Source: a virus. From it: a DNA stretch of 64,000 nucleotides. Location: positions 1-64,000 of the IMG/VR virus record IMGVR_UViG_3300021088_000001; one strand, given 5' to 3'. Of the stretch, positions 53,292-57,246 are shown piece after piece. Both the position numbers and the translations under genes were made by a program. The notes under the pieces are model-generated. The model was not told where the DNA came from and did no database searches. It saw only the letters and a list, made by a program, of their open reading frames with translations. The first letter of the stretch is position 1, and every line of letters starts with the position of its first letter.

Positions 53292-54221
53292 CTAGTAAAA
53301 TACTTCTTTACCTCTCTGATAAGGCTTAATCCTCCCATCCAAAAGAGCATTAGAAAACCTCTGAAAATAATCATCTAAATACAATTGCCTAACAGCATCA
53401 TAATTTTCATAAGCAAATTCTCTCCACCAACCTGATGAGATGCTCGTACAGCATTTGAAAAGTGCATAGTCAAATGCTTCTCTGGGCGTCATACTTCCTG
53501 TATAGGGTACTAAACTACGCTCAATTGCCAATACCATCGACTCTTCCACTACACTGAGCAATTTAATATTTTCATCGGAGGCTTCAAATTTATTTTTGCT
53601 ACATTGCACTTCAGCTTCATCTACTTTAAAATACATGTATGCTGGCTTATCTAAATGTTTTATTGCCACGTGGATAGAGTCATGGTCATAGATGTATGGC
53701 ACATTATCTGTGAAGAATTCATCCTTAGATTTATTCAATTTAGGATGTGAGTAGTTATAAGTATCTTTCATACGTTGATTGTAGAACTCATAAGCACTCT
53801 CTGGTATGAATGCTCCATGTTGTCTCATCAACTTAATATCTTGTCGTGTCTTCTCGAAGTGGGGAGAATTCTTAAGATAGCGGTGAGACATCTTGAGCAT
53901 ATAAAGACAGTTCAGACTTGGAATTAATGCATCAGTACCATTTAGCACAACTTGCTCAAAACCTTCCTCCATATGCACAAACTCTTTAAGTCTCTCAGCC
54001 ATACTGTCAGGCCAAGCCACTTCAGCTTCAATAATACGTCTATCTGTTTTTACATAGACTGTCTTACCACTATTTATAGGATATTGTGCTAACACTTTCT
54101 CACCAAGATTATTGATGAATTCTTGGATTTCATCATACGAGCCAACGAGGTCTAGATCAGCAGGTTTTCGTGGCAAATCAATATGATAAGCTAATGCACA
54201 GCTTCCGATTAGTACTAGCAC
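53292..54221 (-). CDS. Pol-beta-superfamily nucleotidyltransferase-like protein with a C-terminal helical domain
   Basis: LIGS.AL...ADLDL; LY.LK.SH; HDSIH; SGWWREF; TTG start after AAGGAG. Confidence 0.7.
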
Positions 54222-54234
54222 AATTTCTCCTTAA

Positions 54235-54471
54235 TTAACAACTTTGATTACTTGGATGCCAACCTTTATCGCCCCACGGAGAATCATCGGTTGGACAATA
54301 GAAGCCACCAACACTGTAACCCTCTTCATATGAGTTTCCTTCTCCACCCCATGGAAGCTCAAACACTATATTAAATTCGTTAGAGAGTTTGATACACTCG
54401 TCAAATAATTCACGAAGTTGTGCACATTTTGACGACAGCAAAGCTGCTGCAGCTTCTTGTGTATGGTCCAT
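54235..54471 (-). CDS. small protein ending W-x-x-S-x-x-x-C (paralogue 2)
   Basis: ATG 54471 follows the upstream stop by 1 nt; ends GWHPSNQSC*. Confidence 0.75.
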   Translation of the reverse strand: MDHTQEAAAALLSSKCAQLRELFDECIKLSNEFNIVFELPWGGEGNSYEEGYSVGGFYCPTDDSPWGDKGWHPSNQSC

Positions 54472-54472
54472 A

Positions 54473-54745
54473 TTAACAATCATACGAAGAGCTATTCCAC
54501 TCAGGATGCAGCTCTTCAACAGCCTCAAAATCATACTTCAACTCTCGCAAGTCTATAGTAATTCCAGACAGTGTAACAAGTTCTTTGATCTCTGTCAATA
54601 GAAGTTTGATAGACTGAATCTTTGCAGCGCAGTCAATTGAAGCTTGCTTCTGGATGATGAGTTTCTGACGCGCAAACTCTTTCAGATCAATTGTTGGCAG
54701 CTCTACCAATTCTGCAGGGTTGGCTTTCTTTTTGATTTCATTCAT
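54473..54745 (-). CDS. small protein ending W-x-x-S-x-x-x-C (paralogue 1)
   Basis: RBS AAGGAG; ends EWNSSSYDC*. Confidence 0.75.
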   Translation of the reverse strand: MNEIKKKANPAELVELPTIDLKEFARQKLIIQKQASIDCAAKIQSIKLLLTEIKELVTLSGITIDLRELKYDFEAVEELHPEWNSSSYDC

Positions 54746-55230
54746 TTTACTATCTCCTTAGCTAAATTTAACAAACGTTTATCTGCTCTAGTAAGAACTT
54801 CAAGCAGCTTTATTTTTTCTTCCAAATATATTACTGCAAATTTCGGGTCGTGTCTACAAATACTTGATGTATTACTTATCAAATCTGCACATTTAATTGT
54901 TTGGATATGTGCTGGAGCTTCTGATAATCTCGCACAAGCTGCAGCCTTCCTTTGTGCCCGATTACCTACTTCCATATCCGATAGCCACCAAACACCTTTA
55001 GCAACAGTGAAACCGAAATGTGCCAATAGGACATCATATTGCACACCTTGATCCTCCATGCAGTCATGTAGCCACGCTGTCGCTATACATTGTTCACACT
55101 CAGACACACTGGCTGTGATAGCAGCCACTTCTGCTAGATGTGTAATGTAAGGCTCTCCTGTGTATTTTCTAACTTGGTTTTTATGTTTATCTCGTGCAAA
55201 CATCATTGCATTATATACTATATCACTCAT
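54742..55230 (-). CDS. SpoT/Mesh1-like HD hydrolase (small alarmone hydrolase-like)
   Basis: H..Q.RK..G.PYI.H..V, A.LHD..ED, IK.AD.I.N. Confidence 0.88.
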   Translation of the reverse strand: MSDIVYNAMMFARDKHKNQVRKYTGEPYITHLAEVAAITASVSECEQCIATAWLHDCMEDQGVQYDVLLAHFGFTVAKGVWWLSDMEVGNRAQRKAAACARLSEAPAHIQTIKCADLISNTSSICRHDPKFAVIYLEEKIKLLEVLTRADKRLLNLAKEIVK

Positions 55231-55519
55231 TTGTCTACCCGCCAACCAATATACCATCCACCACCCTTATCATGATTTAAACACATACTAAATGTGTTAT
55301 TAGCTTCAGCTTCCTGAGCATTCACACAAGCATCCATCCAATATCCATTTACGAATTTTGCATAATATACAATAGTGTTAAATCCTTGTATCTGGTACAC
55401 GCTATTGTACAGTGGCTTGATTGCAAATGAAGTCCAATTGAAGCCTGCGGGACCGTTTAGGGCACGTTCTGCTTCAGAGGGGTTGGTCCAATCTGTGATC
55501 TTCAACATTTCGCTTCCTC

Positions 55520-55972
55520 CTAGTAATAGAAAAGATGACGCCCAACTCTCTTGCAAAATTTCAAATGCCACTTAGGATGAACATATACAGCATGAAAGCT
55601 GCTACATCCCTCCACAACAGGCTCCATATTAATCAACATTTCTAACTCTGTCAACTGTTCAATTGTAACACGAAGCTTTGTGTGTTTAGTGAACCCGCTA
55701 AATTGAAAGGGTTCCTTTAGCACTTGGCATGCTGTCATATTTCTTTGTCTCATGCGTGTTAGAATTACGTCGATTATTGCTCTTTTGCCCTTCACAGGTT
55801 CTCCTCCTGCTTCAGATTTCACAGTCCAAGCAATGCATATTGCATCTTCGGACATCGGTAGCCCACCCTCCACAATTCCTTGTGGAAATGTAATAATTTC
55901 TGGCAGGCTTTCTGAAGCTAGGCAAATTGATGCTAGTGACAATAGGAAGCCTATCAGAAGGTTTTTAATCAT
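55520..55972 (-). CDS. cell wall hydrolase (SleB/Hydrolase_2-like) with signal peptide
   Basis: C.A..V..EA.GE...G..A..V..R, QFS, FH...V.P.W, G.H.FY. Confidence 0.82.
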   Translation of the reverse strand: MIKNLLIGFLLSLASICLASESLPEIITFPQGIVEGGLPMSEDAICIAWTVKSEAGGEPVKGKRAIIDVILTRMRQRNMTACQVLKEPFQFSGFTKHTKLRVTIEQLTELEMLINMEPVVEGCSSFHAVYVHPKWHLKFCKRVGRHLFYY

Positions 55973-57246
55973 GCAGCATCTTCTCGGTCTAGACTTTCGC
56001 AAATTCCTTCCATCACTTTGAAGAAATAACTCTTACTCTTCAGAAAATATGGAGTGTGCTTGCCAGTATCAATCCGCAGGATAACTCCCTCACTAGGATG
56101 ACTACCATCAATCACATCATCTCCAAGCGTCTCAGAACGCTCTGTGAGGCCATCAACAAGCTTCTGCAAGCTCTCTGTATCACCGTCATAAACAATAGCA
56201 GGATGCACCTCTACAGGCCCTAGAATCTGCCTATCAGCGCACCATTGATCAAGCTGCTTCTGTGTGAAGTCTATATTAACACCATTCACATCTGCCTGAG
56301 TGATACGGTATACATGGAAGCGGTATTCATGCTCTTTGCAGCCATATTTGTAGATAATACTCTCTCCATATTTCTTCTGGAAAGCTTTATCTTTTGTAGC
56401 CTTAGCAGAGTGAACAGCCATAATTGGCTTACCATTAGCATAGCCTGCAATCTCACCATAGACTGTCATACCATTTACCATATGTGGTTTCAGCATCTCG
56501 GCTACATCAAAGCGAAATTGCTCACTTCCGTGAAATCCATCTTTCTTCTCTGTTAGCACTGTGTTGCGTGTACCAACAACATGTGTGTACTCTGTGTTAG
56601 GAAATACATTTGCAAACTTATTCACAACCTGCTTCCACTTAGGTAGTTCTATATTTGTCAGTGTCAATCCTGAGCGATGACTTGTACCATGAACTTTAGC
56701 ATGGAAGTGAATCAAAGCACCTTTAGGAATCAATCCTACATTGTGCTTGAATTGATCACTATCTACATGCTTAGCAAACAATGGTGTCACAGACACTTTA
56801 GCTTGCTTAGGACGATTTTGTCGCGCAATACTATCTCGTGTTGCTTGGCTAATGTATTTGCAGCAGATTGGAAACTCATTCACTGTGTCAAATGTCTCTC
56901 CAAGAGTTCGATAACCATCACGTCCTGTATAGAACAAGCTAGACAATGGTGCAAAATACCCTTGGCTCTTCACCTTCAAGAATGGCTGCACTCGTACACG
57001 CCGATTCTCGTCAAAGAATCCAGATTTTGTTGTATCAGAATTCAATTCACTCCGACGAAAAAGATTATTCTGTTTGCAATACTCTTCAGAGAGTTGTGTA
57101 TCTGCGGGGAAGAACACACCAATGTATCCTACTCCTGTGTCTTTGCTAACGATAACATTCTCACCAAGCACAACAGCTACGTGAATCTTGTCTGCTCCCG
57201 GAATAGGAGTGACAGAAGTGATTGCTGCAATAATTGCTTTACTCAT
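55969..57246 (-). CDS. ATP-dependent RNA ligase with N-terminal OB-fold (DRB0094/Rnl2-like)
   Basis: PIPGADKI, motif I KVHGTS, YGEI.G, EGV.LR, K.KS..F. Confidence 0.85.
   Translation of the reverse strand: MSKAIIAAITSVTPIPGADKIHVAVVLGENVIVSKDTGVGYIGVFFPADTQLSEEYCKQNNLFRRSELNSDTTKSGFFDENRRVRVQPFLKVKSQGYFAPLSSLFYTGRDGYRTLGETFDTVNEFPICCKYISQATRDSIARQNRPKQAKVSVTPLFAKHVDSDQFKHNVGLIPKGALIHFHAKVHGTSHRSGLTLTNIELPKWKQVVNKFANVFPNTEYTHVVGTRNTVLTEKKDGFHGSEQFRFDVAEMLKPHMVNGMTVYGEIAGYANGKPIMAVHSAKATKDKAFQKKYGESIIYKYGCKEHEYRFHVYRITQADVNGVNIDFTQKQLDQWCADRQILGPVEVHPAIVYDGDTESLQKLVDGLTERSETLGDDVIDGSHPSEGVILRIDTGKHTPYFLKSKSYFFKVMEGICESLDREDAA

Follow-up and report, generated by a model that had tools for sequence, protein, structure and literature searches.

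We analyzed a window of 64,000 nucleotides (nt), comprising positions 1 to 64,000 of the IMG/VR record IMGVR_UViG_3300021088_000001. The whole phage genome is 77,271 bp long, and the phage is distantly related to the Pseudomonas Otagovirus group, with 54% identity of the primase-helicase. On the minus strand of the window, four closely packed genes encode an HD_4 protein, two small proteins with a C-terminal cysteine (proteins A and B), and a nucleotidyltransferase-like enzyme. The last three of these genes are the subject of this analysis. The small proteins, which share the C-terminal pattern W-x-x-S-x-x-x-C-stop, and the MenT-like nucleotidyltransferase are a real two-part module of virulent phages. 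Its features in the window are as follows, with the source of each in brackets.

54473-54745, minus strand: small protein A, Cys-tailed, 90 amino acids (aa), isoelectric point (pI) 5.0, of the family "LHP-x-W-N-S-S-S-Y-x-C" (open reading frame (ORF) list, orthologue alignment).
54476-54499, minus strand: tail of protein A, W-N-S-S-S-Y-D-C followed by TAA, giving the end EWNSSSYDC-stop (sequence).
54235-54471, minus strand: small protein B, Cys-tailed, 78 aa, pI 4.3, net charge -9, of the canonical "G-W-x-P-S-S-Q-S-C" type (ORF list, homologue alignment).
54238-54261, minus strand: tail of protein B, W-H-P-S-N-Q-S-C followed by TAA, giving the end GWHPSNQSC-stop (sequence).
54227-54232, minus strand: Shine-Dalgarno sequence AAGGAG, 5 nt ahead of the GTG of the enzyme (read directly from the sequence).
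53292-54221, minus strand: nucleotidyltransferase-like enzyme, 309 aa, GTG start, phrog_2141 (Pfam, PHROG, AlphaFold2 (AF2) model).
53985-54215, minus strand: N-terminal Pol-beta-type domain DUF7277 of the enzyme, residues 3-79, with G6-S7, D22, D24, and E65 (Pfam, alignment of 40 homologues).
53376-53906, minus strand: helical domain DUF7275 of the enzyme, residues 106-282 (Pfam, alignment of 40 homologues).

The genes of proteins A and B are separated by 1 nt, and the 13-nt gap between protein B and the enzyme contains the Shine-Dalgarno sequence. The ORF list starts protein B at a more upstream ATG, which gives 99 aa; its homologues begin at the ATG at 54471. An original prediction, made from the sequence of this stretch, had given the gene coordinates, the 1-nt and 13-nt spacings, both tails, and the enzyme motifs, and the ORF list and the sequence agree with it on all of them.

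Pairwise BLASTP of protein A against protein B gave no alignment. At the profile level, the alignment of protein A orthologues (A4) matched the protein B alignment (A2) with an hhalign probability of 97.2% and an E-value of 4.4e-11, and the tails were paired too. The original prediction had described a similar helical segment in the two proteins, and exactly those segments were paired in this comparison. Judged by these profiles, proteins A and B are true paralogues. W83, S86, and C90 of protein A are invariant in A4, which contains orthologues from 13 viral loci, and W71, S74, and C78 of protein B are invariant in its 26 homologues. Protein B matched the C-terminal part of phrog_899 weakly (E 4e-4), and its relatives reach 1.7e-16. 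Both proteins have the features of a Cys-tailed family that corresponds to the C-terminal module of phrog_899, namely a helix, a hairpin, an acidic linker, and the tail.

ORFs ending in W-x-x-S-x-x-x-C-stop were limited to proteins A and B, both in the window and in the whole genome. The pattern occurred in 6 of 4016 ORFs on control strands of related loci; therefore, two adjacent chance matches are very unlikely. Most tail-bearing ORFs from the related loci (134 of 155) form one BLAST-linked cluster. When 1.84 billion cluster representatives were searched with the family profile, 1120 clusters were found at E<=1e-3 and 491 at E<=1e-10. Of the 150 top-scoring representatives, 146 have the exact end W-x-x-S-[SA]-x-x-C, and the remaining four are longer by one residue. 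The loci also frequently contain tails of a second class, W-x-x-S-x-C, such that Trp and Ser keep a constant spacing, whereas Ser and Cys are spaced by 2 or 4. No part of the family is more conserved than the tail. The bodies are only ~27% identical on average and the helix is poorly conserved, whereas hardly any variation is seen in the last eight residues. The tails are encoded with either Ser codon family and end at any of the three stop codons; therefore, selection acts on the protein, and an overlapping downstream signal is ruled out as the cause of this conservation. The terminal Cys is the sole Cys in 84 of 155 members, which excludes a role in an intramolecular disulfide or a metal cluster. 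The family is acidic (median pI 4.5), and a phage carries one to six diverged copies. In some proteins, which reach 254 aa, the tail module follows other domains to which it is fused, such as a WYL_2 barrel.

The AF2 model of protein B, with a predicted local distance difference test (pLDDT) score of 78, has a 29-residue helix (residues 5-33) and a small hairpin of strands 56-59 and 70-73. G-W-H-P is part of the second strand, and the final five residues belong to no helix or strand and were modeled with lower confidence. As modeled, a small protein consists of a long helix and a small beta-hairpin, and its C-terminal pentapeptide is exposed and follows a buried Trp. A Foldseek search of the PDB with this model gave nothing below E 4.7, and a search of the ESM Atlas with the small protein returned clusters at 0.79, all of them unnamed. 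Neither Pfam nor NCBIfam contains a family for the small proteins.

Two tail variants with a residue after the Cys were found in related loci, one ending in W-A-P-S-N-V-C-W (L052, 3528-3983) and the other in W-V-S-S-D-S-C-F (L037, 3420-3674). Given these variants and the four best representatives with an extra residue, the requirement for a free Cys carboxylate is close to strict but has exceptions. In a 446-kb record (IMG/VR 3300036715_004471; L057, 2904-3308), a 134-aa relative of the small proteins lies upstream of the enzyme, has lost the tail, and ends in an acidic run. Its match to the profile is weak (E 0.002); should it be truly related, it would offer a natural variant without the tail for comparison. 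A precursor of a ribosomally synthesized and post-translationally modified peptide, or of the AviCys type, was rejected as an explanation of the small proteins. No radical-SAM, LanD-type, or dehydratase genes lie nearby, and the proteins appear to be folded instead of consisting of a leader and a core.

The enzyme matched DUF7277 (E 3.9e-12) and DUF7275 (E 1.8e-65) in Pfam, as did all 40 aligned homologues, and it matched phrog_2141 with an E-value of 5.7e-98 over residues 1-303. All three are uncharacterized families. Among the 40 homologues, G6, S7, and D22 are invariant, D24 and E65 are at least 90% conserved, and the GS...DxD signature (motifs I and II) is present in 71 of 72 homologues. 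In DUF7275, K110, H113, H121, H180-D181, H184, E226-E227, E234-R235, and S263-G264 are invariant in the same 40 sequences, D128 is at least 90% conserved, and the TSxxSGW block is invariant or nearly so. The original prediction had assigned a Pol-beta motif together with HDSIH and SGWWREF to this protein, and G6-S7, D22-L-D24, YDHDSIH, and SGWWREF are indeed read in its sequence. The pattern of the Pol-beta nucleotidyltransferase superfamily is complete, with G6-S7, D22-L-D24, E65 as the third carboxylate, and the expected order of strands and helices in the AF2 model (pLDDT 92.5). With these catalytic residues intact in the sequence, the enzyme looks active.

Foldseek ranked MenT1 as the top match of the enzyme model (E 1.8e-5, template modeling scores 0.32/0.48), followed by an antigenic nucleotidyltransferase-like protein, ANT(2''), CCA-adding enzymes, and MenT3/TglT. 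In the VIA all-against-all alignment, MenT1, MenT3, and MenT4 led with Z 7.3, 6.9, and 6.5 over residues 1-274, which are moderate scores, as a Z under 8 may reflect a common arrangement. These matches covered 151-158 aligned residues at a root-mean-square deviation of ~4 Å. The next matches were ANT(2'') (Z 6.3) and JHP933 and LnuA (both Z 5.9). Searching PDB chains with the enzyme profile gave no sequence match at E<=1. The AbiEii/DUF1814 family (PF08843) was matched by one of the 40 members only, below threshold (E 0.0088), and RlaP (PF10127) by none of the 40 at E<=10. NCBIfam contains no family for the enzyme. PADLOC returned only a stray sub-threshold DruH match to the enzyme (E 0.0066, 63 residues) and none to the small proteins or the HD_4 protein.

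The catalytic residues of the MenT enzymes are S78/D80/K189/D211 in MenT3 and S67/D69/K171/D186 in MenT4 (PMC7450476). K110 and D128 of the phage enzyme are spaced by 18 residues, within the MenT motif III/IV range of 15-22, which suggests that they are the motif III and IV equivalents. Where the phospho-acceptor S78 of MenT3 precedes D80, the sequence pattern of the phage enzyme has a Pro two residues before the first Asp (P20-A21-D22).

The enzyme was detected by tblastn in at least 733 phage records, all with less than 60% identity. These include RB69-like and other T4-like phages, rV5-like coliphages, Acinetobacter, Aeromonas, and Pseudomonas phages, and jumbo phages. In the first three relatives inspected (Ralstonia jumbo phage RsoM2USA, coliphage ESCO13, and Acinetobacter phage KARL-1), two or three tail ORFs lie directly upstream of the enzyme. 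The same layout was found in an RB69-like phage, where the enzyme RB69ORF134c has ORF135c-139c upstream, as well as in Pseudomonas phage M5.1 and Acinetobacter phage Ac42. Selection by the enzyme alone gave 83 loci. Their tail ORFs number 183 on the strand of the enzyme, nearly all of them no more than 1.5 kb upstream, compared to 6 on the opposite strand. One to five tail copies are present within 2.6 kb upstream in 61 of the 68 scorable enzyme loci, and upstream copies outnumber downstream ones by 152 to 12. Clustering of all neighboring ORFs gave no other widely shared gene family beside the enzyme.

The linkage also holds in the reverse direction. An enzyme-blind profile search, for which a narrow small-protein alignment (A3) was used, selected 23 viral loci of one subfamily. 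The enzyme lies within 1.7 kb downstream in 22 of them, and in the 23rd the contig ends 14 nt past the small gene, so a tail gene without the enzyme was not found among the 22 informative loci. Many of the 23 loci are on the same contigs as those of the enzyme-side set; eight contigs were new, seven of which carry the enzyme. In 185,579 prokaryotic species genomes, the enzyme was found eight times, always on contigs of metagenome-assembled genomes and with tail ORFs in seven of the eight. Therefore, the module is essentially viral. Across T4-like, rV5-like, jumbo, and Otagovirus-like phages, the genes are tightly adjacent, keep a fixed order, and are translationally coupled. The tail is invariant in contigs that were binned with hosts from several bacterial phyla. 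The original prediction had proposed that the enzyme and the small proteins are a dedicated set, and had named a lack of tail motifs near enzyme homologues as evidence against this. The tail motif and the enzyme homologues strongly co-occur. The co-occurrence in both directions, the stop-anchored tail in more than 1000 clusters, and the intact catalytic residues support such a dedicated module.

A distant branch of the enzyme, in Streptomyces phage Limpid and Vibrio phage K406, has a shortened N-terminal domain, whereas its DUF7275 match stays strong; DUF7275 is the best conserved part in distant homologues. No Cys-tailed proteins were found in Limpid and K406. Instead, the enzyme is followed by one or two copies of a 103-121-aa protein (L116, 3082-3774 in Limpid; L117, 3285-3650 in K406). 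Its end is conserved (...GYY-x-S-W-D...W-D-G...V-K-P-V-Q-K-x-I-T-x-Y), and it may be a different small partner. The downstream proteins were rejected as relatives of the tail family (hhalign probability 0.2%). In Acinetobacter phage Ac42, the enzyme homologue is 411 aa long and has an extra N-terminal domain of ~100 aa (L101, 6536-7771). The Ac42 enzyme and its two Cys-tailed genes lie directly after a gp41-type helicase, and the position is the same in phage KARL-1.

We tentatively favor the reading that the tails are substrates of the enzyme. A MenT/AbiEii-like Pol-beta nucleotidyltransferase (DUF7277 and DUF7275) would be encoded behind its one to six small acidic partners, and the flexible Ser/Ser...Cys end of each partner would enter the NTP-binding cleft of the enzyme and be covalently modified there. 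The likeliest chemistry would be O-nucleotidylylation of the Ser at W+3 or W+4, with the terminal thiol or carboxylate as less likely acceptors. In this way, the early phage proteins of an entire family would be tagged by a single enzyme, and their variable bodies would each have a separate task, probably the binding of host targets. Covalent modification of the exposed Ser/Cys tail in the active site is a serious candidate, although we rate it somewhat short of probable. We are a little more hesitant about the wider proposal of a phage protein-tagging system, in which one nucleotidyltransferase would modify the Ser/Cys tails of small effector or carrier proteins, and the resulting nucleotide- or thiol-bearing arm would act on the host.

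The invariance of the tail across host phyla implies a reader with the same degree of conservation, most simply the enzyme that is inherited along with it. An invariant, exposed tail on a variable body, mostly with a single Cys, fits a substrate family with one modification site better than an antitoxin. Likewise, several diverged copies and the domain fusions fit a shared tag better than a single antitoxin. Tail modification is further favored because the enzyme is intact and its relatives transfer a nucleotide or phosphate to hydroxyls. The structural relatives include the hydroxyl-nucleotidylylating enzymes ANT(2'') and LnuA. The MenT toxins transfer phosphate to Ser/Thr in their own active site, and such transfer to an active-site Ser/Thr hydroxyl serves regulation in the MenAT and AbiE systems (PMC11375011).

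Several observations weigh against this reading. We infer the physical contact, the modified residue, the nucleotide, and the biological role, and the evidence for contact and for modification by the enzyme is indirect. W-x-x-S-S-x-x-C and W-x-x-S-x-C tails occur in the same phage, so that one active site would have to accept two Ser-Cys spacings. The closest relatives of the enzyme, the MenT toxins, act on tRNA 3' ends and not on proteins, and the fold matches to them are moderate, with Z-scores (6.5-7.3) at which a chance arrangement is possible. At least one complete 53-kb viral record contains the enzyme without any member of the small-protein family, and in another record the enzyme lies beside a tail-less relative of the small proteins. 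Since the enzyme occurs alone, it must have a function of its own. A complex prediction for the enzyme and protein B gave ipSAE scores of 0.00 and 0.02, which count neither for nor against binding.

The occurrence of the enzyme alone also bears on a different explanation, in which the small proteins are MenA1-like regulators or pseudo-substrates. The enzyme would then own a substrate, possibly RNA, for example tRNA 3' ends, as for MenT and RlaP. The small proteins would switch it off, on, or to another target, either by binding through the long helix or by plugging the active site with the acidic linker and tail. We regard this main rival as possible but doubtful. It agrees with MenT1, MenT3, and MenT4 as the best fold matches and with the K110...D128 spacing in the MenT range. 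MenT1 is controlled by a short upstream-encoded protein that binds via one extended alpha-helix (PMC11375011; PMC7450476). The phage module has the gene order and size of MenA1-MenT1, and its small protein likewise has a long helix, of 29 residues. The low pI of the small proteins would be expected for nucleic-acid mimics at an RNA-binding surface. However, one to six diverged copies per phage and the domain fusions are unexpected for an antitoxin, the helix through which such a regulator would bind is the poorly conserved part and the last eight residues the nearly invariant one, and it is not obvious why a virulent phage would need an addiction module. The sequences also do not place the enzyme in AbiEii/DUF1814, with one sub-threshold match in 40 members.

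If the two partners instead only share a cassette without contact, the tail would act on a universal host target, as a metal or active-site ligand or as a degradation or localization signal, and the enzyme would work separately in the same pathway. We consider this improbable. The existence of enzymes without tails, the resemblance of the small proteins to typical early-region acidic proteins, and the absence of a predicted interaction are compatible with it. In contrast, the tight adjacency, fixed order, and translational coupling across very different phage groups, the lack of any other conserved neighbor, and the absence of tail genes without the enzyme (0 of 22 informative loci) argue for a closer connection. 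Still less credit is due to protein-primed synthesis, in which the tail Ser would serve as a primer to which the enzyme adds several nucleotides, yielding protein-oligonucleotide conjugates. The MenT and RlaP relatives do extend a 3'-OH by one to a few nucleotides in a template-independent manner (PMC7450476; PMC12776372), and the invariant Ser is adjacent to an aromatic residue with the potential to stack as a base would. A protein primer is, however, without precedent in this fold class, and the sequences fit protein priming and a single nucleotidylylation alike.

Among known systems, MenAT1, MenAT3, and AbiE probably share with the phage module a bi-lobed Pol-beta enzyme with an N-terminal GS...DxD core and a helical lobe that carries a conserved Lys and a downstream Asp. 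As in MenAT1, where MenA1 precedes MenT1, a small helical protein is encoded directly upstream. Unlike these enzymes, the phage enzyme has an extra conserved helical domain of ~130 aa with His/Asp-rich motifs and TSGWxRE. The phage module is found only in phages and has one to six partner genes, compared to one in MenAT. MenA and AbiEi proteins have no W-x-x-S-S-x-x-C tail, whereas this tail is invariant in the phage partners. In MntA-HepT (a type VII toxin-antitoxin system) and in GlnE/GlnD-type systems, Pol-beta-fold enzymes AMPylate or UMPylate a hydroxyl of a small partner that is encoded adjacently, which is the same logic as in the reading that the tails are substrates. However, the HEPN Rx4-6H motif is absent from the phage partner, whose acceptor would be a C-terminal tail Ser and not a Tyr within the fold, and no homology of the phage module to MntA-HepT or GlnE/GlnD-type systems was detected. 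ANT(2'')-Ia, LnuA, and JHP933 are two-lobed as well and bind the acceptor hydroxyl between the nucleotidyltransferase core and the helical lobe. These enzymes are far smaller, lack partner proteins, and have antibiotics or unknown substrates as their targets.

The original prediction had also compared the tails to the microcin C precursor (MccA/MccB) and to the GG end of ubiquitin-like proteins. This analogy is loose. It holds in that a motif at the very C-terminus would be activated by a nucleotide-using enzyme. It fails in that the enzymes of those systems are E1/ThiF-type adenylases of another fold, which act on a terminal Asn or Gly; the phage module has a Pol-beta enzyme and a terminal Cys, and there is no homology. 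A microcin C-type peptide-nucleotide system was accordingly rejected. RlaP is, like the phage enzyme, of the Pol-beta type and common in large phages, and an RNA ligase lies near the enzyme in the window. RlaP adds one or two nucleoside monophosphates to an RNA 3'-OH in RNA repair (PMC12776372; PMC7824862). The phage enzyme was rejected as an RlaP member, as neither a PF10127 match among its 40 members nor a conserved linkage to the RNA ligase, which is near the enzyme in one other related locus, was found; moreover, RlaP has no Cys-tailed partners.

Literature searches for DUF7275/DUF7277, for a C-terminal cysteine with nucleotidyltransferase and phage, and for phage-encoded nucleotidyltransferases gave no description of the module. 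A survey of jumbo phages mentions RlaP and CCA-adding enzymes, but not this enzyme family (PMC7824862). Neither the enzyme nor the small-protein family has a solved structure, and the enzyme is represented only by its two DUF entries. A Pol-beta nucleotidyltransferase with a small cognate partner is of a known kind, and there is a substantial chance that the chemistry itself is new. That the eight-residue tail keeps its place at the very C-terminus in phages of several bacterial phyla strongly points to specific chemistry. If the enzyme acts on the tail, phages would use a new protein modification during infection, which would also provide a new protein-tagging handle, and a phage protein-tagging chemistry of this sort would have no described counterpart. 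If the small proteins regulate a MenT-like enzyme, phages would use the fold of a tRNA-end-modifying toxin for their own purposes.

One further gene belongs to the local operon and lies outside the conserved module.

54742-55257, minus strand: HD_4 protein, RelA/SpoT-hydrolase-like, 171 aa.

The HD_4 gene overlaps the start of the protein A gene by ATGA and is translationally coupled to it. Its protein matched positions 1-119 of TIGR00691 (E 7.6e-15) as well as phrog_990, and the gene is a stand-alone, small-alarmone-hydrolase-like gene that matches the RelA/SpoT hydrolase domain. A DraRnl-type RNA ligase is encoded 1.7 kb upstream of the enzyme (55969-57246, minus strand); it is 425 aa long, with an OB domain of the PHA02142 type and weak similarity to DraRnl (DRB0094). 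The original prediction had drawn on the Mesh1-like hydrolase and the RNA ligase to suggest counter-defense. These neighbors are lineage-specific: of ~115 related loci, 5 have an HD_4 gene near the enzyme, with no constant position, and 1 has the RNA ligase. As they are not conserved, they give the counter-defense reading no support, and an RNA-repair operon was rejected on the same grounds. A counter-defense role is possible for any early phage gene. Adjoining the RNA ligase gene, 55520-56002 on the minus strand encodes a SleB-like cell-wall hydrolase (Hydrolase_2) that has a hydrophobic segment at its N-terminus, and this hydrolase is kept as an upstream neighbor in 19 related loci of the same phage lineage.

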